A stretch of 64,000 nucleotides of DNA from a virus (lineage: Duplodnaviria; Caudoviricetes), in IMG/VR virus record IMGVR_UViG_3300027759_000001. The stretch is one strand, 5' to 3'. The notes beneath the pieces are model-generated. The model was not told the origin of the DNA. It saw only the letters and a program-made list of their open reading frames with translations, and made no database searches. The position numbers and the translations under genes were made by a program. Shown in pieces: positions 1-64,000 of the stretch. The stretch's first letter is position 1. The number at the start of each line of letters is the position of its first letter.

Positions 1-889
1 AGGTAACTGATGTCTTTAAATATTCTTTTGTAACACCAACCATATTATCTGTAAAGAAATCACCAGCCTCTCTATCTATCTTATTGTTATTTATCTTATC
101 AACCTTATTAATGTTTATATCTACCTCAGGCATTTTTTCATTAAATCTTACACCTGTATAATAGAATGAAAGTTTTAATCTTGGAAACCAACCAGCTCTA
201 ATTGTTTGTAATGTACGTGAATCAATTAAGTTATCTATTGTTTCTGTAAACTTATTATTTTTATTTACGATTAACTGATCTGGTTTAATTGCTCCTTTTC
301 TAATTTCACCCATTTCATCTTTAGAACAAATTAACATTTCTTTACCTATTTTACTATTCCATCTTGTTGGTCTAGTGTTGTTCATTTGTTTTCCTGTTGA
401 AGATGAATATGATCCAGAAACCTCAAACCATTTTTTGTATTTGTAAATGTATATTGGGTACCAACCATATGAAAGAACAATATATCCCCAATCACTTTTA
501 CCATCTTGTTCCCATCTACCTTCTAAGTTAGATCCCTTAAATGGTAGTAGTTCTGATACTCTTTCAGAGGCATTTGTATTAGTTACTTTTTTAGCTTTTA
601 AGTTGTGAACTTGTTTAAGTTCACTTGTTTTAGTGTCCTCATAGTTACCATCTTCTCTATAGTTCTGAGTATACCTATTATATAGTTCAAAAAAGTCGTC
701 AAGTTTAAAACCAAAAGATGACGCATTACTTTGAATAAACTTATTTATTTGTTGTGATGTAGGGTTTGCGGATTCTTTATATTCATTTATAAATTTAAAG
801 AATATTACTTCTCTTTTAGTAAACGCTTTATCGGCAACTTCCTCTAACAATACTTTTTTAATTATACTATGTAATCCTATATCTTTCAT
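1..889 (-). CDS. Partial (runs off window) phage hypothetical protein with IIKKVLLEE leader
   Basis: Manual translation from ATG at 889: MKDIGLHSIIKKVLLEE...LPFKGSNL...SYGWYPIY..., open to base 1; absent from the ORF track; TATTTAT motif upstream on - strand. Confidence 0.8.
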   Translation of the reverse strand, partial: MKDIGLHSIIKKVLLEEVADKAFTKREVIFFKFINEYKESANPTSQQINKFIQSNASSFGFKLDDFFELYNRYTQNYREDGNYEDTKTSELKQVHNLKAKKVTNTNASERVSELLPFKGSNLEGRWEQDGKSDWGYIVLSYGWYPIYIYKYKKWFEVSGSYSSSTGKQMNNTRPTRWNSKIGKEMLICSKDEMGEIRKGAIKPDQLIVNKNNKFTETIDNLIDSRTLQTIRAGWFPRLKLSFYYTGVRFNEKMPEVDININKVDKINNNKIDREAGDFFTDNMVGVTKEYLKTSVT

Positions 890-965
890 ACTCTATATAA
901 ATATGTTGATATACATATAGTTTTTCCTTTTATGTTATATTTATTGTATAACAATTAATTAAACT

Positions 966-2966
966 ATGGATAATAAATTAGATTATTACCTATCTAAGAT
1001 AGAAAGACAATTAGATTTTCACAGAGGGTTACATTTATTTGAAATGGAAATGAATCCTAATTTTACAAATAAAGCAGTTTTTCTAAAAGAAAGTCAGGAA
1101 GAATATATTACTAATTTATTTGGTGATAATAAAAACATTAGAGAAAGTTATAACAGAGAATTTAATAATGTTCTTGTTGAATCTACATTCAACCCAAAGG
1201 ATGAGGTTAAAAAATTCTTTTCATTTTTAAAAGAAAATTATATTAATGAAATAAATAAAACAAATCTAATAAATGAACAATCAAGTAAAACATTTATAAA
1301 CGAACAATGGCAAAGAGGTTCAGATCCAGTAGGGTATTGGACAATTTTATTTAACCTACTTAAAGCGGCTGGAATAGGTGTTAAATGGGAAGTTGCAAAT
1401 AATCCGGCAAAATCTACATTCATGTATTGGGGACCTTGGGTTATATCAAAAGACATTAATAAAAATGGTGGGTGGCCTGTTAGTTTTACTAGTACGGATA
1501 AAAAACTTTGGTTGTTTAAATTTTCAGGTGGTAAATATGTCGGTCAACCTTTAGCGAATGTTGATTTAGAGTCTAAATATATTGGAACTAAATTTAACTT
1601 AGGTGTATGGGGTAAACTTACTGCAGCCAATGTAACACCACAATTTAACAAGTTATTTATTACCAAACCAAAAGTAGTAGTACCAAAGGCAACGGCTCAA
1701 GATTTACAGATAGGTCAAAAAGTATTTAATGAATTAAAATATGCCTTTGACGGTATGGGAACTTATGAAAACGAGGCCGTAGCGGCATTTAATAAAATAA
1801 AAAATAAATTCCAACTAGATGAACTAAATAGATTAGTTAAATCAAGAGGAGACTTTCCGAATGTATATGAATGGTTAAAGGATGAGATGAGTGATTATGA
1901 CTACACACAATACAGGGCAATATGGGATAGACTTAAAAGTATTGATAAAACAGTCGTAGCACCAAAAGTAAATAATGCATTAAGGGTGGCATCCGCGGTT
2001 GGTGATGTTACGGGAGTGAATGCGGTTGTTTCTGCAGGTGAGAAGGTTGGGACGGCTATTAAGGCAGGATTTACGTGGTTAAAAGATAAAGGTTTACCTT
2101 GGTTCATGGAAAAATTAAGAGAGGGTCTTAGTAGTACTGGAGGTGCAATTTTACAACAACTATTAAATTATACAGGTGTTGGTGCAATTGGTACTACGAT
2201 ATTATGGGCGGCATTAACATTGTTTGATGTGTTTGAAATTTCTACAGGAATTGGTTCTTGGGCTAAATTAATATTTAGTGTTTTAGGATTGTTAACTGCG
2301 GGAGCGTTAGCAAAAACCATTGGTGGATTCCTTAAACCTTTATTTAAAAGTACTGGTGGTACTATAACCAAGTTTATTACATCAATTGCAGAAAAACCTT
2401 GGTTTATAAAATATATTAAACCAATAGTTGGTTGGATTGGAGGTAAACTAGGTTGGGCCGCAGGTTTATTAAAACAAGCTGGTGATTGGGTTGTTAAAAA
2501 ACTTGGAGCAACTACCATCGGTGGTATGGTTACTACGGGGGTTAAATGGTTAGGGCAAATATCTGAAAATTTAATTAAATTTGCTGGTTTTGAGAGTAAA
2601 CAAACAACTGCGTATCTTGCAAAAAAAGATTTACAAAATCAAGGTAAAAAATTAGCAGCAAAAGCGGTTGTAGATCCAACAGTAAAGTATGGTAAAGACA
2701 AATTTGCGCAAGGTGCTGGATATGTTGGTGGTGAAAAGGCTAAAACTGCGGTTGAATTAGGTTATAATATAAAAGATTTAACTAAAAAACCACAAGATAT
2801 AATTAAGCCTTTAAAGAAAAAGATTGATATAAAAAATCTTAGTAAATCTGGAGATGAAGTTATAAAAACATATGATAAATTTGGTAAAGTAATTGATCAA
2901 ACCACCCAACTCGCAAGTAATGAACCTGTAGTTCCTGTTAAAAAGGTTACGGAACCTTTAGGATAA
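966..2966 (+). CDS. Large protein with annexin-like repeat and Gly-rich hydrophobic C-terminal half; paralog of 45921..47564; putative ejection/membrane protein
   Basis: 666 aa ORF; LKYAFDGMGTYENEAV motif; C-terminal half aligns by eye with 45921 ORF. Confidence 0.55.
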   Translation: MDNKLDYYLSKIERQLDFHRGLHLFEMEMNPNFTNKAVFLKESQEEYITNLFGDNKNIRESYNREFNNVLVESTFNPKDEVKKFFSFLKENYINEINKTNLINEQSSKTFINEQWQRGSDPVGYWTILFNLLKAAGIGVKWEVANNPAKSTFMYWGPWVISKDINKNGGWPVSFTSTDKKLWLFKFSGGKYVGQPLANVDLESKYIGTKFNLGVWGKLTAANVTPQFNKLFITKPKVVVPKATAQDLQIGQKVFNELKYAFDGMGTYENEAVAAFNKIKNKFQLDELNRLVKSRGDFPNVYEWLKDEMSDYDYTQYRAIWDRLKSIDKTVVAPKVNNALRVASAVGDVTGVNAVVSAGEKVGTAIKAGFTWLKDKGLPWFMEKLREGLSSTGGAILQQLLNYTGVGAIGTTILWAALTLFDVFEISTGIGSWAKLIFSVLGLLTAGALAKTIGGFLKPLFKSTGGTITKFITSIAEKPWFIKYIKPIVGWIGGKLGWAAGLLKQAGDWVVKKLGATTIGGMVTTGVKWLGQISENLIKFAGFESKQTTAYLAKKDLQNQGKKLAAKAVVDPTVKYGKDKFAQGAGYVGGEKAKTAVELGYNIKDLTKKPQDIIKPLKKKIDIKNLSKSGDEVIKTYDKFGKVIDQTTQLASNEPVVPVKKVTEPLG

Positions 2967-2967
2967 T

Positions 2968-3168
2968 CTATTTTTTCTTATAGTTGTCCCAAAACTTTTT
3001 TAGTTCAACTTTATTATATTTTTTGGATTCACTATCCCAACCACATGAATGACATAAATAAGGGTGTTTATCACCCTTTTCTTTTTTCCATGAGTGATCA
3101 CATTTAGAACATTTAATTTCATTTCCAAATAATATATCGGCTTGTTTCTCTGTGATTATAATTTTCAT
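2968..3168 (-). CDS. MKIIITE-leader small Zn-ribbon protein
   Basis: MKIIITEKQ start; CSKC...CHSC. Confidence 0.7.
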   Translation of the reverse strand: MKIIITEKQADILFGNEIKCSKCDHSWKKEKGDKHPYLCHSCGWDSESKKYNKVELKKFWDNYKKK

Positions 3169-4959: not shown

Positions 4960-6096
4960 ATGGGTAAAAATATAATTATTGAGGAATTAGATAGGATAAA
5001 AACTATAATGGGTATTTTGGTTGAACAAGAACAACAATTAGAGCCATTGGTAAGTGGTGATTTAACTATTAAGTATAGTAATTTTGCACCTGACAGGAAT
5101 TTCAGAAAAAACTATGTTTATATTAATGGTGTGTCTGACAAAGATATTACTAAACTAAAAGAATTAAAATTATCAAATACAAATAGTAAAGTTATATTAA
5201 AAAACTATAACACAAATGAAACGTTTGAATTTCCTCAAAAAGAAGTGAAGATAACAATAAATGGTAAATTATATATTCTTGATACGGAGTATAATAAAAT
5301 AATAAAGACATTAGAGACTCATGAAATTGAATTGAATAAGGATTTCCTAAAAAAAATGGAGTCAAAGTTTCCTGATTTTATGATTAAAGTAATGAGAGAA
5401 GTTTATCCTAATAATTGGGGTAAAAATGGTTTTACCGATAGTAATGGTATTTGTGATACTGAGGAAGGTTTAATAAATATTGAAGGGACTAATGTTCCTG
5501 GTCAAACTTGGTCAATACTTAATTACTTTGATACTAATCCTAAAGTAATACAACAATTAATTGAATGGTTTTATAGTGGTGTGTTTAATAATGATGAAAC
5601 ACCACTTAAATCAAGTATTAAGGATTTTGAGAGTTGGATAACAACCAATAAAGAAGAAATATTCAAAGGAGATAATTTAAATAAACTAGTATCACTTAAC
5701 AGAACATCATATGAAAATGGAATTAAGAGTGAAAATACTACAATTGATAAATTAACTCAATCACCATTCAACATTCCAAGAGAAAATATTAAACAATATT
5801 GTTCAGGATCAAGAGAAGATAGATTTGAGGCAAAAGATCTTAAAATAGAAACACCTGATGGAGATAAACACGTTCAAATAAAACCATTGGAATGGTTTAA
5901 GATTGATGAGAAAACAGGTGAATATATTGTTAAGACTTATTATATGAAAAACTATAAAGGTTATTTAAAAAGATACGGACTTAATTATATTGCGTTCATT
6001 AACAATAAAAATATATTAGTCTTTGATAATAAGGATTATGATCTTGATGGGTATCACTATGTGAAGTTCAAGAATAAACCTGTTGAAAAAATATAA
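4960..6096 (+). CDS. Leader-bearing protein with putative C-terminal PD-(D/E)xK nuclease-like domain
   Basis: EELDRIKTIMGILVEQ leader; G...E...D..EAKD...VQIK motif near C-terminus. Confidence 0.45.
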   Translation: MGKNIIIEELDRIKTIMGILVEQEQQLEPLVSGDLTIKYSNFAPDRNFRKNYVYINGVSDKDITKLKELKLSNTNSKVILKNYNTNETFEFPQKEVKITINGKLYILDTEYNKIIKTLETHEIELNKDFLKKMESKFPDFMIKVMREVYPNNWGKNGFTDSNGICDTEEGLINIEGTNVPGQTWSILNYFDTNPKVIQQLIEWFYSGVFNNDETPLKSSIKDFESWITTNKEEIFKGDNLNKLVSLNRTSYENGIKSENTTIDKLTQSPFNIPRENIKQYCSGSREDRFEAKDLKIETPDGDKHVQIKPLEWFKIDEKTGEYIVKTYYMKNYKGYLKRYGLNYIAFINNKNILVFDNKDYDLDGYHYVKFKNKPVEKI

Positions 6097-6098
6097 CA

Positions 6099-7595
6099 AT
6101 GAAGATAGTAATAAGTGAAGAACAATTAAAAACTTTAGTACATCTCATCAAAGAAGATAATGGTAAAATTAATGTTATGTTTGTTGGTGATAGTCATAGT
6201 GCTGGCGATGGATGGACATGGAACTATTTAATTGCAAAAGACCATCCAGAGTGGGACGTTACTCAATTAGCGGTAGGAGGTAAAACAACAAAATGGATGT
6301 TGCAAAATCTTACAACAAAATTAAATGAAAAAAAATATGATTTAGTTTTCATTTATGGCGGAGCTAATGACGTGATGTCACCACAACCAATCTCAACACC
6401 AATAGGTAATATACAAAAAATGGTTGACTTAGTTAATGGTCAAGGAGGTAAAGTGATTGTGTTGGTAGGTTTTGACAGTGAGTCAATATTTAATCCAGAA
6501 AAAGTGACAACAACTAAATATTGTGATAGAGAATGTATGATTGGTTTTAAACCTAAAAGAATAAAATATCAAGCTGATCTACCAAATAGTATTACAGGAG
6601 CAATAATAATACCAAAATTAGTTGGTGATATAAGTTGGAGTAGTGATGGTGTTCACGTAGGATCCGCAAAACACAAGTTAATGAAAGATCACGTTTATAG
6701 TAATATGGGTGATTTAAAAAATATAAAGGTTGACACTAAAACTAATAGTGGTACTAACACCGAAACTCAAAGTGCGTCACAAAAAATATTTAATTCAATT
6801 AAAAACATATTATCTAAAAAAGATAAAATGGAAAGTACTGCAACGCCTGAAGACATTAAGACAATACAATTATCATTAAATGTTATTAATAAAGATGATT
6901 TACCAATGACAGGTCAAATAAATGATGAAACCACTAAAGCAATTGAAAACTATCAAGAAACAAATAATTTAGATAAAACTGGTAAATTAAGTCCTGATAC
7001 AACAGGTGGTATTATAAGTGATTTTTTATTTAAGATAACAGGTAAAAGATATACTTTTGGTAAATCAAGTACTACTGAAAAATCAGAACAAAATTTTAAT
7101 CCGATGGTTATAATAAATCCTGGTGTAAAAGTAAAGACTTTTCCATCTGACATTGAAACTAAGTTCAAAAATGCGGTTGGTGATAATTATGATAGTTTTA
7201 TTTCTGACGTTGAGGAGATTGGTTTAGATCCAAAAATTGCAATTAGACAATTATATACTGAATCCGCATTTAGTCCCGATGTTATGTCATGTAAAAGAAC
7301 ATCAACTGCGGGAGCTAAAGGTATTGCTCAGTTTATGCCAGGCACTTGGCCGTCATATGGTGGTGGTGGTAATCCTTGTAATATTAGTGACGCATTGAAA
7401 GCATATCCTAAAATGATGAAAGTATTGTTAAATAAATTCCCAGGAAGACTTGATCTTTCAATTGCGGGGTATAATAGCGGACCTAACTTAAAAGCTTATT
7501 CTAACGCATTAAAAAACAAAACACCTTTTACGGAACTTAAAGGCGTAATACCAAATGAATCTTATAACTACGCATCTTCAATACTCCAACCATAA
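6099..7595 (+). CDS. Leader + SGNH/GDSL hydrolase + peptidoglycan-binding domain + SLT lytic transglycosylase
   Basis: MKIVISEEQ; VGDSHSAG, GGAND, DGVH; ETTKAIENYQ...TGKL; TESAF...AGAKGIAQFMP...AGYNSGP. Confidence 0.85.
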   Translation: MKIVISEEQLKTLVHLIKEDNGKINVMFVGDSHSAGDGWTWNYLIAKDHPEWDVTQLAVGGKTTKWMLQNLTTKLNEKKYDLVFIYGGANDVMSPQPISTPIGNIQKMVDLVNGQGGKVIVLVGFDSESIFNPEKVTTTKYCDRECMIGFKPKRIKYQADLPNSITGAIIIPKLVGDISWSSDGVHVGSAKHKLMKDHVYSNMGDLKNIKVDTKTNSGTNTETQSASQKIFNSIKNILSKKDKMESTATPEDIKTIQLSLNVINKDDLPMTGQINDETTKAIENYQETNNLDKTGKLSPDTTGGIISDFLFKITGKRYTFGKSSTTEKSEQNFNPMVIINPGVKVKTFPSDIETKFKNAVGDNYDSFISDVEEIGLDPKIAIRQLYTESAFSPDVMSCKRTSTAGAKGIAQFMPGTWPSYGGGGNPCNISDALKAYPKMMKVLLNKFPGRLDLSIAGYNSGPNLKAYSNALKNKTPFTELKGVIPNESYNYASSILQP

Positions 7596-9459: not shown

Positions 9460-10626
9460 ATGTCAGAGGAACACAAATTATCACCATTCTTTAAAAGAAG
9501 GATTGACCATCATAAGTTTGAAAAAATGATGAGGAAAGGTATTATCTATATGTATCAAGAATCAAATTCCCTTGAAGAATTTAAATTTAAGTTAGTTAAA
9601 GCAACATTAGAAAATTATATTTATTATAAATATAATATTGATATTGAAGATTTACCTCACAATGATGTGGATAATTTTATTGATTATATGGTTGATACTT
9701 ATGAACCTGTACTTAAGATGTATTATTATAATGAAAGAAAAAATAGTGGTAATATAAATGAAAATTATAGTCCAGCAGGAAAAGAAATTACACCAAACAA
9801 AATTGTTATACATAAATCTAACCCAAAGTTTAGAGATATAATATCAAATGAAGGGTTAAAAGTAAGGGCTGGAGAATGTTATAAAATATATGCAGGTTAT
9901 GGTGAAAAATGTATACCAGCAATCTTTGCAACTAACTCAATAAATAAAAGAGCATCGTTTGATTCCACATATGATGACGATGTTTGGGAAATTGATACTG
10001 AAATGATACCTGATGTTAAGTGGTACAAAGATAAACACTATGAATCAAGATCAAAACATATAGTAACATTTGAAAACATACCTGCAGATGCAATAACATT
10101 AAAACATGAAGGTACAGGTAAGGATTGGGGATTAATGGAATCAACTAATGATGATAAGTTAAGTAAAGAAACAATGGTGGGTACATTTCAAGACATTGTT
10201 GAGGAAACGTTGGAGGAAATTAGAAATATTTGTGAAGTACTTGATATAGATACTTTCCCTGGTTGGTTGTCGTTTGATGGTTGTGATGTTGTTGATACTA
10301 TAGATAAAATAACTATTGTAAATATAGAAAGAAAAAAAGGTATAAGTAGAATTCCTATGTTTGAAGTTGATGTAAATCTGACGCTTAATGGTATTTGGGG
10401 AGGAATTGATTATGATGATTTTATTTATACTATTTCGGATAGAATAATTGGTAAATGGAAGATACATTTAATTTTTAATATTAAAGAACAGGAGAATAGT
10501 AATAAACGAGAAATGTGGGAATACGCAAGGACACTAAAAAATGCAAGAACTCAGGGATCCAAATTAAGGTTCTCTAAGTCTGCAGTCAAAGCAAACCCTA
10601 TGAGGTTTAGACCATACAATAGATGA
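9460..10626 (+). CDS. Multidomain protein: RR-domain + ADP-ribosyltransferase-like domain + acidic domain
   Basis: FFKRRI N-domain; HKS......I..EGL...IFAT...WEID...IP.DAI middle domain bounded by NINE and GLME. Confidence 0.55.
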   Translation: MSEEHKLSPFFKRRIDHHKFEKMMRKGIIYMYQESNSLEEFKFKLVKATLENYIYYKYNIDIEDLPHNDVDNFIDYMVDTYEPVLKMYYYNERKNSGNINENYSPAGKEITPNKIVIHKSNPKFRDIISNEGLKVRAGECYKIYAGYGEKCIPAIFATNSINKRASFDSTYDDDVWEIDTEMIPDVKWYKDKHYESRSKHIVTFENIPADAITLKHEGTGKDWGLMESTNDDKLSKETMVGTFQDIVEETLEEIRNICEVLDIDTFPGWLSFDGCDVVDTIDKITIVNIERKKGISRIPMFEVDVNLTLNGIWGGIDYDDFIYTISDRIIGKWKIHLIFNIKEQENSNKREMWEYARTLKNARTQGSKLRFSKSAVKANPMRFRPYNR

Positions 10627-11213
10627 AAGAGTTAATTAGAAAAATATTGAAGGAAGAAAGAATGAACCCAATCAAAAAGTTCTTCTTTAATCATTGGGAT
10701 GAAATAAGATCCGAAGGGGAATACCCAACTATTGATTATAGTTTAATTGGTAAACTTGGATTTAGAAAAAAAGCAATAGAAATACATGATTACTATCTTG
10801 AATACATTGGTGGTGAAGGTATTGGTGAAGAAAAATTATTAGATTTTTTGTCAAATCAAACATTTGATTCTAGTGAACTAAATTTCAGAAGACACTGGGA
10901 TGATGAAGATTTAAAATTTACGTTTAAGTTAAGTAATGTTCGTATTACTAATGATAGAGATGGGGATAAAAACATTGATGCGGATGCGGACATACTTGAG
11001 GGTTATATTAATATGACAGAGTATAATGATATAGAGGACGAACATTATCAAAACAGGTATGATATTTCAAGGGGTAATAACGAAATAGATGATATGTCCT
11101 CTTACTTTGAGGTTCAGGATGAACTTAGGGCAATAATTCAATCATTTATTATTGATTTTGCAATAAAATATGGTACAGAAATTACCGAAGCTGAGGTTGA
11201 ATTATTAAAATAA
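10623..11213 (+). CDS. LIRKILKEE-leader hypothetical protein, paralog of 11438..11992
   Basis: MKELIRKILKEERMNPIKKFFFNHWDE. Confidence 0.75.
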   Translation: MKELIRKILKEERMNPIKKFFFNHWDEIRSEGEYPTIDYSLIGKLGFRKKAIEIHDYYLEYIGGEGIGEEKLLDFLSNQTFDSSELNFRRHWDDEDLKFTFKLSNVRITNDRDGDKNIDADADILEGYINMTEYNDIEDEHYQNRYDISRGNNEIDDMSSYFEVQDELRAIIQSFIIDFAIKYGTEITEAEVELLK

Positions 11214-11437: not shown

Positions 11438-11992
11438 ATGAAAGATTTAATCAGAAAAATATTAAGGGAAGAAAAGGTTAATCCTGTAAAGAAATATTTC
11501 TTTGATCTTTGGGATGAACAGAAATCATTAGGTGATACACCAAGATACGATAAGAAGATGGTAAAGAGGCTTGGTTTTAGTACAAAACAAAGGGACATAA
11601 TGGGTTACTACAGAGAATATATGGGTAATGTTTATGACATGAGAAAAGATTTTGAAAGATATCTAACTAGTAAAAAAGAATTAACCACAGACGATATGGA
11701 AGATGAGGGTATTCATACAGGTGGATATGATTTTTCATTTAAATTTCCATATGTTTTTGTAAGAGAAGAAAATAATCAAGTTGAGATATTTGTTGATTTT
11801 GATATTACTCACGGTAGTGTTACTTTAATGACAAACGGTGAGGAATATGATTTAACTGATCACGAATCAATTGAGGATGATCTTTGGTTAGAACTTAGTT
11901 CAGAAATACAAGATATGATACAAGATTTTGTTGTGGCAACTGCGAACTCATTTGGTGTGGAATTTTATGACGTATATGTTCAATGGGGTTAA
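11438..11992 (+). CDS. LIRKILREE-leader hypothetical protein, paralog of 10623..11213 (start revised)
   Basis: MKDLIRKILREEKVNPVKKYFFDLWDE; TATTTAT upstream. Confidence 0.75.
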   Translation: MKDLIRKILREEKVNPVKKYFFDLWDEQKSLGDTPRYDKKMVKRLGFSTKQRDIMGYYREYMGNVYDMRKDFERYLTSKKELTTDDMEDEGIHTGGYDFSFKFPYVFVREENNQVEIFVDFDITHGSVTLMTNGEEYDLTDHESIEDDLWLELSSEIQDMIQDFVVATANSFGVEFYDVYVQWG

Positions 11993-13113: not shown

Positions 13114-13716
13114 ATGAGAGATATAATTAAAAAAGTATTAAAAGAAGAAGACGAAAGACAAAGATACATCAAATCTACAGATAGTCTTAGAAAAGTTATC
13201 ACATTATTTCTTAATGATTATATTGAGGATGGTAATAGAATAATAGGTAAAAAATCTCGTAACTATGGTAATCTTCGCGAGGATTGGTGTGTTAACGGTA
13301 AAGAAGTTATTACCGCAATATACTATTACGAAGACGGTAAATTTGATAATGGTACATTACTGATATCATGGGTATTAGTGAAAAAAATAATGAAAATTTT
13401 TAACACAAGAAAAAACTTTGTGATGAGTATAATAGAGGAATGGTATGAAGATACTATGATTCCAAAGTTTGAACAAATAGTTGGTGAAACAGGTTTTTAT
13501 TTTGATGATGTTGATCTATATGATGGAGACCACGATTGTATTCCTGAACCAGTTAAACCTGAAAATATTACAGATGAAGAAATGCTTGAGTTTATTGTAG
13601 ATAATACCGCTTATCGTAGAGATGAGGTTATTAATAAAATTGAATCAGGTGAAAGAGACCTTGAAGATTTTTATTTGGATATTGTTCATACTGTTGAAAA
13701 TAAAAAAAGATACTAG
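13114..13716 (+). CDS. IIKKVLKEE-leader hypothetical protein
   Basis: MRDIIKKVLKEED. Confidence 0.7.
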   Translation: MRDIIKKVLKEEDERQRYIKSTDSLRKVITLFLNDYIEDGNRIIGKKSRNYGNLREDWCVNGKEVITAIYYYEDGKFDNGTLLISWVLVKKIMKIFNTRKNFVMSIIEEWYEDTMIPKFEQIVGETGFYFDDVDLYDGDHDCIPEPVKPENITDEEMLEFIVDNTAYRRDEVINKIESGERDLEDFYLDIVHTVENKKRY

Positions 13717-43352: not shown

Positions 43353-43362
43353 ATAAGTTAAG

Positions 43363-43998: not shown

Positions 43999-43999
43999 G

Positions 44000-48431: not shown

Positions 48432-49468
48432 TGAAAATCATATTAAGTGAATCTCAAATATTGAATCTTTTAAATGAAGATATGGGTGTTAGTAGATCAA
48501 CATTACCATATGTAAATTTAATTTATAGAATTATAGAACCAATGGTTGAATCTATGGTTCATAGTGGAAAGTCTTCACGACAAAATATTGTAATAGGTTT
48601 AGATAAGATTAAGAGTATTATAAAAAATGATGAAGATTCATTTTTAGAATTCCCAATGGAAGAGATTGAAATTGTTATTTCATTTTCTTACGAAAAAGGT
48701 GATGTGGAAAATAATTTTGCTAGTGGTGGTGCGGCATATGCGTTAGATGAAAAAACTGGTGATTATTCCTACATGAGAAAGCCATCACCCGAAATCCCAA
48801 AAAAAATTAAAGATGAAGTTGAAATGACATTAAATGCATTAATGGACATTGAGATTTACATTGATTCAAAATTTAAGATGAGTCAGATGGATGAACTACT
48901 TATGGATGTAAGAGACACCATTATGCATGAAACATTACATCTGTATGAATTTTATAAAAGATGGTTAAGTACTGGTTCAGGAAATTTTAATGTATCTAAA
49001 ACTTATGCAGGTAGAAAAAATCCAAATACACCAAGAGAAATATACGATTATTATTCTGAATTTTTAGATTATGTTTATTATTCTGAACCATATGAAATAA
49101 ACGCAATGACCCAAGAAGCATACTCAAAAGTTTTACGAATGAGTTTTGACACATTTAAAACAACTAAGTATTGGATTATGTCAAACAAAATGGAAAATTT
49201 TAATGCCGACCAATATTATCGTGAGTTAGAGAAAAAAATAAAAGAACGTAGTGGTGAAGAAACATTAAATTATCATTTGAATAATTTACACAAATTCTAT
49301 TTAAAGCAATATGTTAAAATTTCGTTAGAGAATAATGAATCTGTGTCTAATAAAATACTTAAGACTAAAAATGTTTACGATCTAATAAAAAGTTTTGAAC
49401 TTAGAATTACTCAATCAGGTAAAAATCTTAAACGTAAGTTTATGAAATTGTATACTATTGAAAGATAA
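48431..49468 (+). CDS. MKIILSE leader + HExxH zincin-like domain
   Basis: IMHETLHLYE...YYSEPYEINA. Confidence 0.6.
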   Translation: MKIILSESQILNLLNEDMGVSRSTLPYVNLIYRIIEPMVESMVHSGKSSRQNIVIGLDKIKSIIKNDEDSFLEFPMEEIEIVISFSYEKGDVENNFASGGAAYALDEKTGDYSYMRKPSPEIPKKIKDEVEMTLNALMDIEIYIDSKFKMSQMDELLMDVRDTIMHETLHLYEFYKRWLSTGSGNFNVSKTYAGRKNPNTPREIYDYYSEFLDYVYYSEPYEINAMTQEAYSKVLRMSFDTFKTTKYWIMSNKMENFNADQYYRELEKKIKERSGEETLNYHLNNLHKFYLKQYVKISLENNESVSNKILKTKNVYDLIKSFELRITQSGKNLKRKFMKLYTIER

Positions 49469-49492: not shown

Positions 49493-49903
49493 ATGAGTAA
49501 AGAAATTATCAAAGAAGAACTTAACCAAATGAAATACCTTTTTGGTTATAAACGAGGAGTTATTATTTCAGAGCAAGAAGTGGATGAAGAAAAAATGGTT
49601 GTTAATCCATATACGTTGGAGGCACGTAATGGTAATGTTATGATAAATGACACCATCACTAAAAAAGTTTACGCATATTCATTGTCCGCATACGGTGTTA
49701 AAGTAACTGTAAACGATTTTCCTGGTGGGGATAGTATTAATTACTCAGTTCCTTTTAAAGGTTCAAGTACCCAAGAAATAAGTAATAACAGTGAATTACC
49801 AAAAATAATAAAGGCGAATGCTGGAAAGTGTGAAATAAAGACTGAAGTTGGTGGTATTGCAATAACTCTTAAATGTGTATTTGGTTGCGCTGGTTGTAAA
49901 TAA
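49493..49903 (+). CDS. EEL..KYL leader hypothetical protein
   Basis: EELNQMKYLFGYKRGVIISEQ. Confidence 0.75.
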   Translation: MSKEIIKEELNQMKYLFGYKRGVIISEQEVDEEKMVVNPYTLEARNGNVMINDTITKKVYAYSLSAYGVKVTVNDFPGGDSINYSVPFKGSSTQEISNNSELPKIIKANAGKCEIKTEVGGIAITLKCVFGCAGCK

Positions 49904-50435: not shown

Positions 50436-50795
50436 ATGAAAAGTTTAATAACTGAAGAAGAAAAATTAAGAATACGGTCAATGCATATTAATGAAAAATT
50501 TTCATTACTAAAAGAACAAGGTCAATTTGATGATTTATACCCAATTGATCCAACAACCGCATCAACCGTAACAACTCCAATAACCGCACCAGCTGACGCA
50601 CCAAAAACAGGTACACCTGAAGCTAAAGCATTCCAAGATTGGATGGATGTAAATCACGTTAATTGGAATCCAAGTGTTCCTGCACAAAATTGGAAAAAAC
50701 TTAATAAAGGAAAAGCTTATGGTCAGTTTGGACCAAAAAGTTTGGCTGCCTGGACAAAGTTTAAAGATGAATACACTAAAACATTAGTAAAATAA
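50436..50795 (+). CDS. EEEK.RI..MH leader protein with peptidoglycan-binding-like domain
   Basis: MKSLITEEEKLRIRSMHINE; AFQDWMD...GQFGPKSLAAW. Confidence 0.65.
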   Translation: MKSLITEEEKLRIRSMHINEKFSLLKEQGQFDDLYPIDPTTASTVTTPITAPADAPKTGTPEAKAFQDWMDVNHVNWNPSVPAQNWKKLNKGKAYGQFGPKSLAAWTKFKDEYTKTLVK

Positions 50796-50800: not shown

Positions 50801-51904
50801 ATGGCAAAAATAATTAAATTAAATGAAAACGATCTTAAAAGAATCGTTATTAAAGTTCTTAATGAAAGACGACTTAATGAAGATGATGTAGTCACTAATG
50901 GTTTATCTCCTGGTGCTATCACACAAGACGTTGCCGATCAATTAAAATACACAGAAAATGAAACAGATCCTGAAGACAGATTTGAATCGATATGTAATGT
51001 ATGTACGTCAGGTAAAGAAGGGTTAGGCCCAATAACTCAAAGTGAAAGTGCTTTAGATGGTATTGCTGAAAGTATATATGATGCAATTGAGGAAGGTAGT
51101 TGGTATACTCTTGGTGCGGGAACTAATGAGAAAAAAGTAGAAAATGGTATACGTAATACTAAAAGTTTTCCTGATTTCTGTTATATGATTTCTAGTTATA
51201 GTGCTAAATATGAGGACTTCTTTGAATCAATGGATGGAGATTTTGCTCAAAACGAGGAATATAGACGATATTTGGTATCACCTGTTGCTGATGTTATTAG
51301 ATATAGTACTAAATTAATTGATAAAAAATCTGATGTTAAAGTAGACCCTAAAAAAGATGATGTTGTTACTCCTGGTGGAGGTGGATCTGAGGATAATTGG
51401 AATATGTATATGTGTGTTATTGAGCATCCAAAGGCAATTGGTGAAAAATATGCCGATGGTAAAAGAACTCGTTTTAGAATTGGAACTGATTATTATATGG
51501 GTAATGGTAAAAAAATACGTAAGGGTATTGAATTAGATTATTCGTGTGAAGACAAAGAGTTTGATAATGTTGATTTTGCGGATAAAGAAAATAACAAATC
51601 TAACAACGGTAATAAAAGACCTATAAATGCAGAAATAAAAGACATACAAAAATTTTTAACTGACGAAGGATATGATATCTCAACTGATGGTGAAATAGGT
51701 AGCGAAACCGCAGGTTCAATTATTGATTATATTGTTGATAATAATTCAGACGAATTTAAGCCAGGATCTGTTTTAGAACTTCAAAAGAAAATTAATAGTT
51801 GTTATTCTATGAAAATTAAAGAAGATGGAAAAGTTGGTCCTGAAACATTAGACGCTATTGCAGACGCATTAGAATCAGCACAAGACGGAGATCTTTGTAA
51901 ATAA
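50801..51904 (+). CDS. Leader + annexin-like repeat + Cys module + two peptidoglycan-binding-like domains
   Basis: MAKIIKLNENDL...; IYDAI...GAGTNEKKV; IQKFL...DGEIG; LQKKI...DGKVGPET. Confidence 0.6.
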   Translation: MAKIIKLNENDLKRIVIKVLNERRLNEDDVVTNGLSPGAITQDVADQLKYTENETDPEDRFESICNVCTSGKEGLGPITQSESALDGIAESIYDAIEEGSWYTLGAGTNEKKVENGIRNTKSFPDFCYMISSYSAKYEDFFESMDGDFAQNEEYRRYLVSPVADVIRYSTKLIDKKSDVKVDPKKDDVVTPGGGGSEDNWNMYMCVIEHPKAIGEKYADGKRTRFRIGTDYYMGNGKKIRKGIELDYSCEDKEFDNVDFADKENNKSNNGNKRPINAEIKDIQKFLTDEGYDISTDGEIGSETAGSIIDYIVDNNSDEFKPGSVLELQKKINSCYSMKIKEDGKVGPETLDAIADALESAQDGDLCK

Positions 51905-51905: not shown

Positions 51906-52409
51906 ATGAATATAATACTCACAGAGAGTCAATATCGTATTCTTCTTGAAAGTCAAGAAGAAGTTGATAGGATATTAGATAAAATTAGTGATGGTGGGTA
52001 TGAATCTTTAAGTGTGGATGAAAAAAGATACTTAGATGTATTTTCTAAACATAAAGGAAGACCTGATGAATTTGTTGATCCTTCCCAAAGTTATGATGAA
52101 AGAGAAGGGGAAAAATTCATATCTTCTTTTAATCATATTCCAAAAATAGAATTTGTTTTTGATTACGAAGAAAAAACTGAAGATGAAACTGCATTATATG
52201 GTACAATATATTTTAAAGATAAGGAATACATTGGTGGTTTATTTTTAAACAAAATGGGGCACTTAATTGATTTTGATTTCTATGATATAAATGAAGATCC
52301 TAAAAGTATTCATGATGATGTTGGAAGATTTCAAGATGAAATTGAAGGTATTGAACCTGAGGTTAAAATGTTTTTTGAGGATGATGTTATTCCATCTCTA
52401 AAAAATTAA
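51906..52409 (+). CDS. MNIILTE-leader hypothetical protein
   Basis: MNIILTESQYRILLESQEEVDRILDKIS..GY.SLS..EK. Confidence 0.75.
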   Translation: MNIILTESQYRILLESQEEVDRILDKISDGGYESLSVDEKRYLDVFSKHKGRPDEFVDPSQSYDEREGEKFISSFNHIPKIEFVFDYEEKTEDETALYGTIYFKDKEYIGGLFLNKMGHLIDFDFYDINEDPKSIHDDVGRFQDEIEGIEPEVKMFFEDDVIPSLKN

Positions 52410-52468: not shown

Positions 52469-53047
52469 ATGAAAAGAAAAATAAGATTAACCGAAAGCGA
52501 ATTAACTACCTTAATTAAAAGAATGGTAGAACAAGCTCAAGAAGACATGAGTATGGAATATACTGAAGAAGATATGGGTTATGATGATGACCAAGAGGAA
52601 TTGTCTAAACCTGAGGTTGTTGACATTATTTCTGATTTCTTTAAAAGTGAAGTATTACCAGAATTAGCACCTGAAGAAAGATCTGAATTGAAACACATGG
52701 CAAGAAAAGCAACTCCTGAAATGACAGAAGCATATCTTAATGAAGATTTAAAAAGTAGATTTAAAAGTTTTAAAGAAAAGGCTATGATTGGTGGAGGACT
52801 TGGTACGATGGTAACAGGAATGATTACCGCTCTTGGTGAATTCACAGGATGGTCAGAACATGAGTTAACTATGAAAATCCATGAGTTTGTTGAAAGTTTT
52901 GGAGCTGGACAATACTCAGGACCTATAACTGTGGCAATGGTATTTGCGGGACTAGCTTTAGCATTAAAAGGTTATTCAGATAGAGCAAACAGATTAGATA
53001 CTCCATATACAAAAGATAAACCTGGAAGTGGATTCAACTCGTATTGA
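52469..53047 (+). CDS. RLTE-leader protein with two C-terminal hydrophobic helices
   Basis: MKRKIRLTESEL...; YLNE then GGGLGTMVTGMITALG and VAMVFAGLALAL. Confidence 0.75.
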   Translation: MKRKIRLTESELTTLIKRMVEQAQEDMSMEYTEEDMGYDDDQEELSKPEVVDIISDFFKSEVLPELAPEERSELKHMARKATPEMTEAYLNEDLKSRFKSFKEKAMIGGGLGTMVTGMITALGEFTGWSEHELTMKIHEFVESFGAGQYSGPITVAMVFAGLALALKGYSDRANRLDTPYTKDKPGSGFNSY

Positions 53048-59718: not shown

Positions 59719-60246
59719 TTACTCTCCTTTAGCTAAGTTAATACATTGTTTAAGGTATTCTTTAGTTCTTGGTGATGGTGTATACTCATCGTCTCTTGTT
59801 TGGAGGTTTAAAACTCGTTCAATATCCTTAACTAATTCAGTTCCGTGTTCATTTTCTTTATATAACTCAATTACTTTATCCATTGCTTTATTACATTTTT
59901 GATTTGTTTCATCAAAATAGTTTTTATTTCTGAATTTATTCAAATTATTCATCATTTCATATGCTAAATGGCTACCACCATCTTTTACATCTTTAAATAA
60001 TCTAATGTTATTTAATATACCTAAAGTATCTACCATTGAATTAACCCCATTTCTTCTTTTACTTACTCCAGGTGAGTATCTGGTAAATTCGTCTGCCTGA
60101 CCAACCATCTCATCTAATGAAATTGTGTTTTCAGGTAAACAAGTGGGTCTAGCCTTTTTCTTATCTTTTACTTCTGCATCGTTCTCTAAAAGAGTACGTC
60201 TTATAATGCTTCTAAGTGTGTTTTCATTTAAATTATTTTTTTTCAT
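59719..60246 (-). CDS. LNE...LLE leader hypothetical protein
   Basis: MKKNNLNENTLRSIIRRTLLE. Confidence 0.75.
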   Translation of the reverse strand: MKKNNLNENTLRSIIRRTLLENDAEVKDKKKARPTCLPENTISLDEMVGQADEFTRYSPGVSKRRNGVNSMVDTLGILNNIRLFKDVKDGGSHLAYEMMNNLNKFRNKNYFDETNQKCNKAMDKVIELYKENEHGTELVKDIERVLNLQTRDDEYTPSPRTKEYLKQCINLAKGE

Positions 60247-60326: not shown

Positions 60327-60737
60327 ATGTCAAAAAATATTGTTACTTTAACCGAATCAGACATACAAAGAATTGTTTTAAGTGTGTTACAAGAAACTAA
60401 TGAATCAAATTTTCTATATGAGGATTTGTTTGGTTCGGTAGAAGAAACTAACTTTATTATTGGTGATTTAATAACCGAGGCGGAATATCAGGGAAGAAAA
60501 GTTCAGTTGGGTAAGATAATGCAAGGTGACATTAAAAAGTCCAAAGTATATGTTAAGAATGATAAAGGTAAGGTTGTTAAGGTAAACTTTGGTTTTGGTG
60601 GAAAATCAGCCAAAGGTAAAATAATGAGGATTAAGAAAAATAATCCTGAAAGAAGAAGATCATTCAGAGCAAGACACAATTGTGATAATCCCGGCCCAAG
60701 ATGGAAACCAAGATATTGGGCGTGTAGAACTTGGTAA
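60327..60737 (+). CDS. LTESD leader + basic conserved-looking phage domain
   Basis: LITEAEYQGRKVQL...VYVKN.KG.VVKVNFG...NPERRRSFRARHNCD...RYWAC. Confidence 0.75.
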   Translation: MSKNIVTLTESDIQRIVLSVLQETNESNFLYEDLFGSVEETNFIIGDLITEAEYQGRKVQLGKIMQGDIKKSKVYVKNDKGKVVKVNFGFGGKSAKGKIMRIKKNNPERRRSFRARHNCDNPGPRWKPRYWACRTW

Positions 60738-61455: not shown

Positions 61456-62082
61456 ATGAGTTTTTTAGATTTAAAAATAAAGTCGTTATTAAATGAGAAT
61501 AATAACAAGAGAGAAGAGATTAGAAAAATTGTTAGAGACATTATTTCAATCTTTAAAAAAAACGATGAAGGTGATTTTTATTTACCTGAAGAGATAACTG
61601 ATGAACAATTTTATGATTTTGATAAAATTGATGCACTTTTAACAATTGAATTAACAATTACTATTAATGATGAAATTGACACTTTTGAGGTTGATGCGGA
61701 TTGGGTTTCAGAAGATGATGTTATAGAACTTACAATAAAATATAATTCTGAAAATAAAAAAAGATTATTATATGATTTAAGTGGTGAATTAAATGAAATT
61801 ATTGCACACGAAATTAGACACATTGATCAAGATACAAAAGGGTCATATAATACAAAAGTTAGTAAATTACTAAAAACAGAAAAAAAATATTACACAAAAC
61901 CACATGAGTTAGATGCTCAAATATTTGGATTTAAAAGAATATCTAAATTAACTAAAACTCCATTTGATGTTGTTGTAAAAAGATGGTTTAATACTCACCA
62001 TAATTTACATCAAATGAATGATACTGATGTTAAATATGTGATTAAAAAAATTATGTCGTTTAAAAAAGAAAAAGGACTTTAA
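61456..62082 (+). CDS. LLNE leader + HExxH zincin-like domain
   Basis: IIAHEIRHIDQ...YYTKPHELDA. Confidence 0.6.
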   Translation: MSFLDLKIKSLLNENNNKREEIRKIVRDIISIFKKNDEGDFYLPEEITDEQFYDFDKIDALLTIELTITINDEIDTFEVDADWVSEDDVIELTIKYNSENKKRLLYDLSGELNEIIAHEIRHIDQDTKGSYNTKVSKLLKTEKKYYTKPHELDAQIFGFKRISKLTKTPFDVVVKRWFNTHHNLHQMNDTDVKYVIKKIMSFKKEKGL

Positions 62083-62696
62083 GATCTAAACCTTTCAATA
62101 ATCTTTGTAATTAATTCTGTTAAAGTCGTAGAAGATATTTTAACCGCCAAGTAACCTAATATTATTTTAGATAATACCGTTATATCAGAACTTGTTGCTC
62201 CACCACTCATATCCAATAATTTTGATAAAAAAGGAATAATAAATGTGTATGCTAACATACCCGACATTTTATGACCTGTAACTTTTAAACTATCAACAAA
62301 TGATAAGAAAGTATTTTTTAATTCATCTGTTTTTTCTAACATTTCGTTAAAAGAAGTAACTAAACCACGTTCTTTAATGATACCTAATAATTTACTTAAT
62401 TTTTCTTTATTAGATGTGTAGTAAGTAACCGCACAAGCAATTGACAATAAAGCCAAATCTTGATTAGTCAGTTCAGGGTTCTTACCCTCAAAATAATTAA
62501 ATACTGGTCTTGAGAATCCTCCAATAGCCGCTCCCCATGTAAATAAGAAACTAAAATCTAATTTAGTATCTTCTTTTACAGATCTAACTATCTTCTTAAT
62601 AAACTCTTTAGAACGTTTAATTTCATCACCGATTATAGATTTACTACTCTCTAATAATAATTTTTCATATTGATGTTCAGTTATTACAATCTTCAT
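62079..62696 (-). CDS. MKIVITE-leader membrane protein
   Basis: MKIVITEHQYEKLLLES; several hydrophobic helices. Confidence 0.75.
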   Translation of the reverse strand: MKIVITEHQYEKLLLESSKSIIGDEIKRSKEFIKKIVRSVKEDTKLDFSFLFTWGAAIGGFSRPVFNYFEGKNPELTNQDLALLSIACAVTYYTSNKEKLSKLLGIIKERGLVTSFNEMLEKTDELKNTFLSFVDSLKVTGHKMSGMLAYTFIIPFLSKLLDMSGGATSSDITVLSKIILGYLAVKISSTTLTELITKIIERFRS

Positions 62697-62730
62697 ACTG
62701 AATAATAAATATTACGATATATTTATTATT

Positions 62731-63411
62731 ATGGAAAAATACGTAAAAAACGCACCATTAGAAAAAGGAGATACGGTTGTCTGTATTAAAATGCAAGATG
62801 AATATGGTGTTCCTGGTGGAGTACCGGGGGTTGTTAAATCTGTTGCAAATGTAATGGGGGATATGCAATATTATGTTGAATGGGACAATGGTTCTAAATT
62901 AGCTTTAATTGAAGGTGTTGATAAATGGATGAGAGTTGTCCAAGATGACACAATAGAAGAAAGTTTTTTTATGACTAAAAAGGGTATTATAAGAGAATCA
63001 AAAAAAGCATCTGAAAAGTTTAATGATTTATCTGAGTACTATGACATACGATTAATTAAAAAATTCCTTGACGCATTAAGACTCTCAAGTGTTACTAATA
63101 TGTTCCAAGCGGGTCAGTATCTTTATTTAGGAAAAGAAAGAATTGCCCATGAACACAAATATAATGAATTTAGTGATGATACTCAGGAAGCATTTGATGA
63201 AGTCTTAGATATGGCAGAAGAGGTTAGAGATGAAATGATACGAGGGTCATTTAGTTCTATTGATGATAAAAATCAAGGTAATGATAATGATGACGAAGAT
63301 GAACTTGATTCAAGATATTTACGTAGTGTGGAAAATAAAATGAGACGAGACGCACAGGATCTATTATCTCTTTGGATGCAATTAAAGGGTAATGCAGCAA
63401 GATTGAGATAA
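62731..63411 (+). CDS. DUF4314-like N-domain fused to DUF5049-like C-domain
   Basis: GDTV.CI.M.D.Y...G.V..V......V.WDNGS.LALI.G.D.W; LR.S..TNMF. Confidence 0.5.
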   Translation: MEKYVKNAPLEKGDTVVCIKMQDEYGVPGGVPGVVKSVANVMGDMQYYVEWDNGSKLALIEGVDKWMRVVQDDTIEESFFMTKKGIIRESKKASEKFNDLSEYYDIRLIKKFLDALRLSSVTNMFQAGQYLYLGKERIAHEHKYNEFSDDTQEAFDEVLDMAEEVRDEMIRGSFSSIDDKNQGNDNDDEDELDSRYLRSVENKMRRDAQDLLSLWMQLKGNAARLR

Positions 63412-63439
63412 TTAAACTATTTATAACAAAAACAAAATT

Positions 63440-64000
63440 ATGGCACAATATTTTTTTAAGATGACAAATGAGGAAAGAACTAATATCCTTGACCAACATA
63501 AAACAATTTATGATGGATATGTCACAGAATATGCACAAGGTGAAAACAAACAACCTTTATATGTTCAGGATTTCGCAAACGATAAAGGTGGAATCACGGT
63601 GAACAACAAAGGTGAGGTTAAACCTTACACAAATATGGGAATCAATGAATCTATAGATGGTAGATTGGATATGATTGGAGATGGAGATGACGATCTAAGA
63701 AATGGTACCGTTGATTTCTCAAGTATTGACAATGATGAAGATGATAGTTATATATCATTAGGTATATCTATTAATGACGATGACGATGATGATCATAAAG
63801 ATTTAAGTATGTATAACCCATATCATGGTGATAAAAACTTTGATTTTGATAATGAAGAAGAATCTTTTGATATTGAATTAGATGAAGTTGATGATACAAT
63901 TTTAGATCTTAAACCTGAATGGTCTGATGAAGAAGAAATTGTTAATGACATTTACGATGACGGGTTTGATGAGGTTGACGAAGAAGAAAAAGATGAGTTC
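63440..64000 (+). CDS. Partial protein with EE..NILDQH leader and very acidic tail
   Basis: Manual translation MAQYFFKMTNEERTNILDQH...GINE..., open to window end. Confidence 0.75.
   Translation, partial: MAQYFFKMTNEERTNILDQHKTIYDGYVTEYAQGENKQPLYVQDFANDKGGITVNNKGEVKPYTNMGINESIDGRLDMIGDGDDDLRNGTVDFSSIDNDEDDSYISLGISINDDDDDDHKDLSMYNPYHGDKNFDFDNEEESFDIELDEVDDTILDLKPEWSDEEEIVNDIYDDGFDEVDEEEKDEF

Follow-up and report, generated by a model that had tools for sequence, protein, structure and literature searches.

Short N-terminal leaders on numerous proteins of an uncultured T4-like phage as candidate capsid-targeting propeptides

The internal proteins of phage T4 carry at their N-terminus a capsid-targeting sequence (CTS) of 10-19 residues with affinity for the scaffolding core; it is removed by the protease gp21, which cuts after L/I-X-E, and among these diverse proteins only the CTS is conserved (PMC9026906, PMC3012670, 10.1101/2021.01.19.427310). 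The T4 protein Alt is cut at ITE-6 and LTE-619, and in the giant phages phiKZ, 201phi2-1 and SPN3US the propeptides of ejection and inner-body proteins are processed by S80 proteases at S/A/G-x-E (PMC5694885). Described here are short N-terminal peptides (leaders) found on numerous proteins encoded by a stretch of 64,000 nucleotides (the window) from the IMG/VR virus record IMGVR_UViG_3300027759_000001 (Duplodnaviria; Caudoviricetes). Judged from the sequences, the chances are about even that these leaders form a much enlarged set of T4 CTS-like capsid-targeting propeptides that are cut by a head protease. The principle of the T4 CTS is known; the scale and the leader sequences themselves are new, and the interest lies mainly in scale and modularity.

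Classes and anatomy of the leaders

About 57 window genes (at least 57 in the 64 kb) carry leaders, which were assigned to six classes, A to F, using six-frame regular-expression and hidden Markov model (HMM) scans; the numbers per class given in a preliminary description of the stretch held. Class A (MKIIITExQ) is present on 21 genes (20-21 by the expression M[KR][IV][IV][IL][TS]E.Q), class B (M..IVRLTExDLxRLVKRVIxE) on 15, class C (MNLQE.I) on six, class D (..LIRKILKEE, overlapping with MNLQE.IRKVL.EE) on about seven, class E (EELNxMKYLxxYKRGVIISEQ) on three plus one related gene, and class F (EE[KR]..I..[MQ]H) on three to four. First-order Markov simulations with the dinucleotide make-up of the window yielded mean numbers of matches of 0.01-0.03 (class A), 0.11 (class B) and 0 (MNLQE.I), with a maximum of one. 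The leader HMMs, proposed earlier as a check, separated the window members cleanly from the rest: 21 class A matches scored at least 14 bits (the next one 4.4), 14 class B matches scored at least 35 bits, and all strong matches were located at the first methionine of their open reading frame (ORF), including one TTG start.

An [IL]xE tripeptide was found within the first 30 residues of 77% of the window proteins of at least 80 aa, compared to 30 ± 4% of internal windows of 30 residues. In every class an [ILV]-x-E occupies a fixed site (ITE in A and F, LTE and IxE in B, LQE in C, [IV]LxE in D, ISE in E), in agreement with the earlier remark that such a motif lies within or just after most leaders. 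The conserved leader residues are encoded by up to five synonymous codons at near-background frequencies, and the DNA upstream of the leader genes is not conserved. Because the synonymous codons vary freely, the leaders are under selection at the amino-acid level. The first codons are rich in A, with AAA and AGA accounting for 100% at positions 2-3.

The class A leader consists of seven residues ending in ITE, with T or S at the middle position of the tripeptide in all 21 cases. In the class B leader, which is 22 residues long, a short hydrophobic strand (IVRL) leads into an amphipathic helix (TExDLxRLVKRVIxE). In the class B alignment (125 unique leaders, 78 IMG/VR loci), positions 1-20 held 2.5-4.3 bits each, with I or L at position 20 in 121 of the 125. 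Within the final I-x-E the middle residue was hypervariable (1.5 bits), and E22 (4.25 bits) was present in 124 of the 125 sequences. From residue 24 on the sequence was polar and variable, with less than 0.9 bit per position; the conserved block thus stops at [IL]-x-E. Within the window set of class B, the only invariant residues were M1, L7 and E9 (L-x-E).

Hybrids between class A and class B leaders exist, e.g. MKIIITEDQYGQLTNLVKRVISE, and the gene at 27968 (genes are designated by their first coordinate) aligned residue for residue with homologs bearing B leaders, with T6, E7 and E19 invariant; on the basis of the hybrids and this alignment, classes A and B are judged to be homologous to each other. 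Classes C to F are variants. De novo clustering of N-termini from the window and a relative of 261 kb joined classes A, B, C and D in a single network of 94 genes with 74 body clusters.

Two other identities were considered for the leaders and rejected. The likeness to a ribbon-helix-helix domain is one of pattern only, since only the strand and one helix are conserved and the sequence past E22 is unrelated. Sec or lipoprotein signal peptides do not apply because the leaders are charged and amphipathic and have no hydrophobic core of at least ten residues; true signal peptides were found on the leaderless window genes at 15276, 33842, 36644 and 54497.

Cargo bodies and leader exchange

BLAST placed 60 bodies that follow leaders in 50 clusters, and the 15 class B bodies were mutually unrelated (E ≤ 1e-3). 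The bodies are indeed diverse, but the former figure of 55-60 unrelated proteins was too high: approximately 18 window genes belong to one divergent family of about 100 aa marked by an invariant RR motif and, in most cases, a P-C (RR family), so that the true diversity is about 40 body types. RR-family proteins are acidic, and most have two conserved cysteines. The AlphaFold2 (AF2) model of the RR-family product of 42716-43000 (m60bbd453e407) is a four-helix bundle with a predicted local distance difference test score (pLDDT) of 86, in which MKIIIT forms an unpaired N-terminal tail and helix 1 starts at E7. Fold searches with this model yielded no significant match; the closest resemblance, a weak one, was to T4-type RNA ligase 2 in its helical C-terminal domain.

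Among the body types named in the preliminary description, cell-wall hydrolases and a phosphatase were recovered; CxxC pairs (2968, 20364) and hydrophobic segments (32757, 47838, 45921) were also present, HExxH was seen in a single body (48431), and no nuclease-like domain could be confirmed among the bodies. The leader-bearing SLT, Tae4 amidase, PG-binding and phosphatase proteins all lack signal peptides, and these cargo types fit virion-borne enzymes. The gene coding for PG_binding and GH19 domains, which adjoins a holin-like gene as expected of an endolysin, has no leader. Leaders are also absent from the metabolic enzymes (glycosyltransferase, metallophosphatase, YceI, RmlD-like, Pyr_excise), the homing-endonuclease-like genes, the lipoproteins and signal-peptide proteins and the tail and baseplate genes seen, among them those of the large tail proteins of the relative G009. 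A protein cluster search with the product of 35083-35391 returned its own cluster only.

Homologous bodies in related phages carry A, B, D or no leader, which indicates that the leaders are interchangeable add-ons; members of the RR family likewise carry A, C or no leader. Pfam domains begin past the leader, and in the product of 6099 the domain starts at residue 26-28, which identifies its leader as an N-terminal addition. In the AF2 model of the 27968 product the body reached a pLDDT of about 70-80, and the leader, in a low-confidence part (about 30), was not packed on the body. Next to the large terminase gene (TerL), a pair of orthologs has the propeptide ends ..LINKVIKE/APVDY in G010 and ..KNISE/APIDY in G009 (the slash denotes the junction): the propeptides differ, the junction is the same.

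Further leader copies are located internally or at the C-terminus, namely in the window gene 41267-41698, at the C-terminus of L052 and in the metagenomic ORFs P0010, P0012, P0033 and P0024. Some metagenomic ORFs are chains of two to three leader-cargo units, the same units being separate genes in other phages, and the methionine of the second unit is often kept; judging from these sequences, the chains look like fusions of neighbouring genes.

Head genes, distribution and setting of the related phages

Searching with the B leader yielded relatives on contigs as long as 292 kb, and the head genes were studied in these relatives (G009, also designated L099, near-complete at 261 kb; G010; others), outside the window. 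The preliminary description had recommended a search for a gp21-like prohead protease. Peptidase_S77 (PF03420, gp21 type) was detected with 77-88 bits in five of the six B-leader records with a completeness of 89% or more and in six of 15 fragments, and the protease matched phrog_207 with E = 1.5e-43. In G009 and G010 it lies in a head module of T4 order, i.e., TerL, portal and two small genes, then the protease, a strongly acidic scaffold and a gp23-like major capsid protein (MCP). The protease of the relatives keeps the T4 gp21 columns H85, S140 and D168 as well as an N-terminal LIE. In an alignment of their MCP with T4 gp23, E65-A66, the T4 maturation cut, was invariant, as FLINE/A. Complex prediction of a B leader with the G010 scaffold C-terminus, protease and core-like protein gave a score of 0.00 with uncertain folds, and carries no weight either way.

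In G009, the heptamer TATTTAT is located 11-30 nt upstream of the scaffold, protease, portal and many tail genes; it precedes 22 of 37 leader genes, compared to 69 of 305 others (p = 1e-5). Because it precedes the head genes, TATTTAT is likely to be a late promoter, and from its distribution it looks like a promoter of that kind and not a leader-specific mark. Within the window it is also found before the glycosyltransferase and secreted protein genes. The window has 61 occurrences on the plus strand and 32 of the complement; the motif stands 11-30 nt before starts, often directly after a GC hairpin and T-run.

Among the 78 leader loci (3-6 kb), no non-leader family was present in more than eight. 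As no enzyme gene is linked to the leaders in these loci, any partner of the leaders would be encoded elsewhere, e.g. in the head module. A RiPP-like (ribosomally synthesized and post-translationally modified peptide) or radical-SAM (S-adenosylmethionine) tag with a co-encoded maturase was rejected for lack of a recurrent neighbour in the same loci.

In G005, G007 and G009, some 12-15 kb separate the head protease gene from that of a two-ring ClpC/ClpB-like AAA+ ATPase without N-domain; the ATPase was absent from the two leaderless T4-like relatives tested. The gene beside it in G009 reads, by eye only, like Hsp20. A phage ClpP (PF00574, 184-192 bits) occurs in some members of the clade; it was absent from two 99%-complete leader-bearing genomes, and therefore is not tied to the leaders, and was present in the leaderless Microcystis phage Mel-JY01.

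Regarding the distribution, the B-leader profile matched 8,284 clusters (E ≤ 0.001) among 1.84 billion representative proteins, nearly all of the 150 matches listed starting at residue 1; the ten clusters examined were all metagenomic and almost all unnamed. The huge phage LR756508 yielded only weak matches to the profile (≤17.7 bits). In the literature searched, the leader strings were not found, and no leader family of comparable size was described. When IMG/VR was scanned for MKIIITE, at least 595 stretches matched, only three of them being confirmed; as a 7-mer is near chance in that much AT-rich sequence, the scan supports no claim.

The window has a G+C content of 30% and dense, short genes, predominantly on the plus strand; tRNA and Rfam scans of it gave no matches. 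One of its products has a CHU_C (type IX secretion) domain, several lipoprotein-like signal peptides are encoded, and no Shine-Dalgarno sequences were seen upstream of its genes; together these features point to a host belonging to the Bacteroidota. The 738-aa product of 54497-56713 combines a signal peptide, a PKD-like domain and the CHU_C sorting domain, and its signal peptide and sorting domain suggest that the phage makes use of the type IX secretion system of its host. Proteins identical to those of the window are present on freshwater-lake metagenome contigs (JGI 3300009158, 3300009164, 3300027733 and related), and the proteins of G010 are 95-98% identical to window proteins. Syntenic IMG/VR contigs showed 46-83% identity for one test protein. 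CheckV estimated a syntenic fragment of 75 kb to be 26% complete, which corresponds to a genome size of about 290 kb. The coordinates of the features are summarized in the following table.

Table 1. Leader-bearing genes of the window, leaderless genes and regions, and selected features of related phages
Feature	Coordinates	Strand	Remarks
Class A MKIIITEKQ + 66-aa body, two CxxC pairs	2968..3168	-	orthologs keep leader
Class E-like MGKNIIIEELDRIKTIMGILVEQ + 378-aa body without Pfam match	4960..6096	+	G009 homolog N-terminus differs
Class A MKIVISEEQ + GDSL/SGNH + PG_binding_1 + SLT transglycosylase	6099..7595	+	
Class D MKELIRKILKEE + 196-aa body	10623..11213	+	
Class D MKDLIRKILREE + paralog of 10623	11438..11992	+	distant homologs: A-like leader or none
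Class D MRDIIKKVLKEE + 200-aa body	13114..13716	+	
Class C MNLQENIQRIRSMMGLRE + PG_binding_1 + dual-specificity phosphatase	17113..17958	+	
Class C/D MTLQESIRKVLREE + 160-aa body	17969..18451	+	
Class C/D MNLQETIRKVLSEE + paralog of 17969	18448..19218	+	
Class C + 112-aa body with CxxC pairs	20364..20702	+	
Class C + RR-family 4-helix body	20704..21063	+	
Class C/D MNLQEHIRKVLKE + RR-family body	21065..21385	+	
Class D variant MNHKLKKIVRGVLREE + 101-aa body	26709..27014	+	
Class D variant MNNKLKKIIRGVLMES + 114-aa body	27011..27355	+	
Class A + RR-family body	27352..27633	+	
Class B short form MGRLTESDLSRIVKRVVNE + 82-aa body	27701..27949	+	
A/B hybrid MKIIITERQSKLLRRIISE + beta/alpha body	27968..28363	+	homologs: full B leader
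Class B MRRIERLRENDLNRIVRRVIRE + 73-aa body	28450..28671	+	
A/B hybrid MKIIITEHQSKRLKRVVNE + 126-aa body	28678..29058	+	
Class F-like ..EWEKNSIREQHEG + 207-aa body	29229..29852	+	
Class A + RR-family body	31285..31620	+	
Class B + 164-aa body	32167..32661	+	
Class B + hydrophobic (transmembrane-like) segment + body	32757..33281	+	97% ortholog in G010
Class B + 151-aa body	33307..33762	+	
Class B + 138-aa body	34645..35061	+	
Class B + 102-aa acidic body	35083..35391	+	
Class A + RR-family body	35464..35787	+	
Class A (TTG start) + RR-family body	35768..36106	+	
Class F-like ..SKIRHIQESNQILERRLLIEQ + 148-aa body	36146..36592	+	
Class B MKKIVRLTEIQLTNLINKIVNE + 76-aa body	38742..38972	+	
Array of class A + RR-family genes, three B-leader genes interleaved	39383..44908	+	
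Array, RR-family genes	39383-39688, 39679-40026, 40040-40369, 41768-42076, 42079-42390	+	class A
Array, RR-family genes (continued)	42463-42714, 42716-43000, 43002-43352, 43363-43998, 44000-44908	+	class A
Array, B-leader gene	40383-40568	+	degenerate
Array, B-leader gene	40581-41264	+	Tae4 amidase
Array, B-leader gene	41267-41698	+	second leader copy at residue 59
Class E EELNLIKYLFDYKKGRVISEQ + 192-aa body	45053..45631	+	
Class B MSKVIQLTESDIENVVRGVIKQ + 547-aa basic body, hydrophobic segment	45921..47564	+	
Class D-like MKMEISKIVRKVLLE + 96-aa body	47566..47856	+	
Class E + body with strong transmembrane segment	47838..48431	+	
Class A MKIILSESQ + 345-aa body, one HExxH	48431..49468	+	
Class E + 136-aa body	49493..49903	+	
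Class F MKSLITEEEKLRIRSMHINE + 119-aa body	50436..50795	+	
Class B MAKIIKLNENDLKRIVIKVLNE + 367-aa body, PG-binding domain at end	50801..51904	+	
Class A MNIILTESQ + DUF6576	51906..52409	+	
Class B + 192-aa acidic body	52469..53047	+	
Class D-like ..LRSIIRRTLLE + body	59719..60246	-	G009 ortholog: B leader
Class B + body	60327..60737	+	homologs: A-like (L059) or D (G009) leaders
Class A MKIVITEHQ + 205-aa body	62079..62696	-	
Class F ..MTNEERTNILDQH + body	63440..64000	+	extends past window end
Leaderless endolysin candidate, PG_binding_1 + GH19	57578-58402	+	
Leaderless small holin-like membrane protein	58453-58683	+	
Leaderless block: GT2 glycosyltransferase, metallophosphatase, signal-peptide protein, YceI-like, T4 endonuclease V-like Pyr_excise	13780-17080		Pfam labels are precomputed matches on identical contig
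Homing-endonuclease-like genes (T5orf172/MUG113; weak GmrSD_C/HNH-like match)	22248-22976, 23150-23959	-	
About 1.2 kb without convincing ORFs	23960-25170		no Rfam or tRNA matches there
TATTTAT examples	window 35420-35463, 41725-41767, 38700-38741; G009 upstream of 51462, 53352, 55394		
Leader-like paralog family	G009 156415-158486, 176930-177624, 188339-189403, 192750-193061, 256765-258146		basis: N-terminus clustering
ClpC/ClpB-like ATPase	G009 66919-68961; G005 ~244.4 kb; G007 ~166.8 kb		G009: TATTTAT upstream
Hsp20-like gene	G009 66394-66765		
Phage ClpP	L001 190-918; G009 252736-253263		

Interpretation and comparison with known systems

The indirect predictions tested all fit a targeting and cleavage signal of the T4 type. 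According to this reading, the leader would dock a late-made protein onto the scaffolding core during prohead assembly, and a serine protease of the gp21 type would then cut after the Glu of [IL]-x-E and free the cargo inside the head, from which it would exit with the DNA at infection or be expelled like scaffold fragments. Docking, cleavage, virion residence and injection of the cargo are steps that we infer. The preliminary description had already proposed head targeting; the boundary at [IL]-x-E, the S77 protease of the relatives and the swapping of leaders speak in its favour, the acidic bodies do not.

Several observations weigh against targeting to the head. The bodies are mostly acidic (in the RR family, the net charge ranges from -5 to -34), unlike the T4 internal proteins such as IPI-III, which are small, highly basic and DNA-associated. 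To our knowledge, at least 57 tagged genes in 64 kb exceed any known head proteome. E22 is followed mainly by Q, E, N or D, compared to Ala at the MCP site, and the conserved Q9 and the RR motif lie inside a folded helix, where targeting does not explain them. A family of 16-20 paralogs in G009 (about 105 aa, starting with MDIQVNKHQLERVVIKWL or MDIQVNKHQLERVVIKWLNKHYGNLT) has a leader-like N-terminus without [IL]-x-E, and a baseplate-like operon is overlapped at its end by a B-leader gene (G009 46932; also in G010). It is for these reasons that the probability of this reading is held at about even. In addition, the residues after ITE form helix 1 in the RR family, so that only seven residues would be removable there, and where a helix follows [IL]-T-E, a strand end with a helix N-cap is another possible reading. 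Within the window, 22 of 51 leader genes are preceded by TATTTAT, compared to 18 of 53 others, an insignificant difference; a sorting of promoter type with leader presence does not hold there. A set of 50,697 cultured or deposited phage records contained no similar DNA and no B-leader tblastn match, and the B-leader profile was absent from Flavobacterium phage immuto and Mel-JY01, the positive controls being detected; among cultured T4-like phages, the nearest ones tested lack the leader. The leaders have no sequence homology to the T4 CTS MKTYQEFIAE, and the resemblance noted by eye is limited to five residues (MNLQENI vs YQEFI).

Some of these points are shared by an unlikely alternative, namely that the leaders, whether or not they are cleaved, are docking tags for another destination (tail or baseplate, virion surface or an assembly built by the phage inside the cell); the leader would bind one conserved receptor, and the cargo would end up outside the head. 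The near-invariance of 22 residues does imply a specific conserved partner, acidic cargos are poorly suited to co-packaging with DNA, the overlap with the baseplate-like operon in G009 and G010 would find a place, and the N-terminal packaging domains of payloads of extracellular contractile injection systems (eCIS) and Photorhabdus virulence cassettes (PVC) are a parallel. Yet no candidate receptor gene is linked to the leader genes, and such a tag leaves unexplained the [IL]-x-E of every class, the stop of conservation at that motif and the parallel with ITE-6 and LTE-619 of T4 Alt (PMC5694885). Decidedly less probable is a leader that serves as a structural N-terminal element (strand, N-cap, amphipathic helix) of a fast-diverging superfamily of small proteins, spread by gene fusion and acting in folding or self-association. 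In the RR family, the segment after ITE is helix 1 of a confident four-helix bundle, T-E-x-[DQ] would match a helix capping box, about 18 window genes are one family, and N-terminus clustering ties the leaders to the MDIQV paralogs that lack [IL]-x-E. This is countered by fifteen mutually unrelated B bodies, by 8,284 clusters with the leader, by Pfam domains that start past it, by homologous bodies with A, B, D or no leader, and by the unpacked, low-confidence leader in the AF2 model of 27968.

Tags for an AAA+ machine, i.e. the phage ClpC/ClpB-like ATPase or host ClpXP, would serve unfolding, remodelling or scheduled degradation, and are regarded as quite improbable. M-basic followed by three hydrophobic residues resembles the ClpX N-terminal recognition motif, and the ATPase gene, near the head protease in three relatives and missing from two leaderless ones, has TATTTAT upstream and the Hsp20-like gene beside it in G009. 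This co-occurrence, though, amounts to three versus two related genomes, ClpP does not co-vary with the leaders, tagging a quarter of the late genes for degradation is implausible, and the sharp [IL]-x-E boundary is left unexplained. Hardly any probability is given to conservation at the level of DNA or RNA, i.e. a cassette for translation initiation or regulation, or a hotspot of recombination at which gene cassettes are shuffled, with a peptide that has no role. The A-rich first codons, the lack of Shine-Dalgarno sequences, the promoter-like TATTTAT close upstream and the gene fusion and fission at leader boundaries would suit it, but the synonymous variation at near-background frequencies largely refutes it, and it is further opposed by the unconserved upstream DNA and by the internal and C-terminal leader copies.

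Returning to capsid-targeting propeptides, a wider picture is put forward tentatively, as possible and somewhat unlikely: an uncultured T4-like clade with genomes of about 290 kb may have made a general cargo system of the T4 targeting principle, using interchangeable leaders cut by the head protease to load about a hundred proteins per phage into the head, with more than 8,000 cargo clusters worldwide, chains included; besides cell-wall enzymes and a phosphatase, the cargos would comprise many small acidic proteins that may counter host defences, and a Clp-type ATPase possibly helps with loading. If the leaders are head-targeting propeptides, a large part of the unannotated genes in an abundant group of uncultured jumbo phages would become interpretable, as their products would be delivered by the virion and act in the first seconds of infection (entry, takeover, counter-defence). 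The 22-residue tag would then be a simple rule for finding such proteins in metagenomes, with 8,284 clusters already, and a candidate tool for packaging foreign proteins in capsids, as the T4 CTS is used; the modular exchange of tags would show how phages quickly recruit new cargo. Besides scale and modularity, it adds to the interest of the claim that it is directly testable.

Cargo-loading peptides of microcompartments and encapsulins and the packaging domains of eCIS/PVC consist of a short amphipathic helix and a linker and direct unrelated cargo to a shell or an injection device. The analogy to the leaders is one of working principle only, as the shells and partners are others, no maturation protease removes the peptides, and the systems are not linked by evolution. 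The giant phages phiKZ, 201phi2-1 and SPN3US are similar in that their heads contain about 50 proteins, many of them cut after Glu by a gp21-related protease, and SPN3US has the diverged paralogs gp53 and gp54 with identical N-termini (PMC5694885). They differ in protease family and motif (A/S/G-x-E vs I/L-x-E), and their propeptides are long and not common to dozens of unrelated proteins.

In comparison with T4 itself, at least six leader classes occur here, the main one 22 residues long and nearly invariant, and the handful of CTS proteins of the T-even phages contrasts with 57 or more genes within 64 kb and with 8,284 clusters worldwide. The predicted cargos are mostly acidic and, unlike those of T4, include multi-domain enzymes, proteins with membrane segments and leader-cargo-leader-cargo fusions. 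Common to both is a short N-terminal peptide that ends in L/I-x-E and is borne by dissimilar proteins, with a variable set of cargos (PMC9026906, PMC5694885, PMC3012670). The tripeptides at which T4 Alt is cut, ITE and LTE, are those of classes A and B, and its two cleaved ends parallel the internal and C-terminal leader copies. The clade also shares with T4 an S77 protease of the gp21 type, an acidic scaffold and an MCP that resembles gp23 and has an E/A site.

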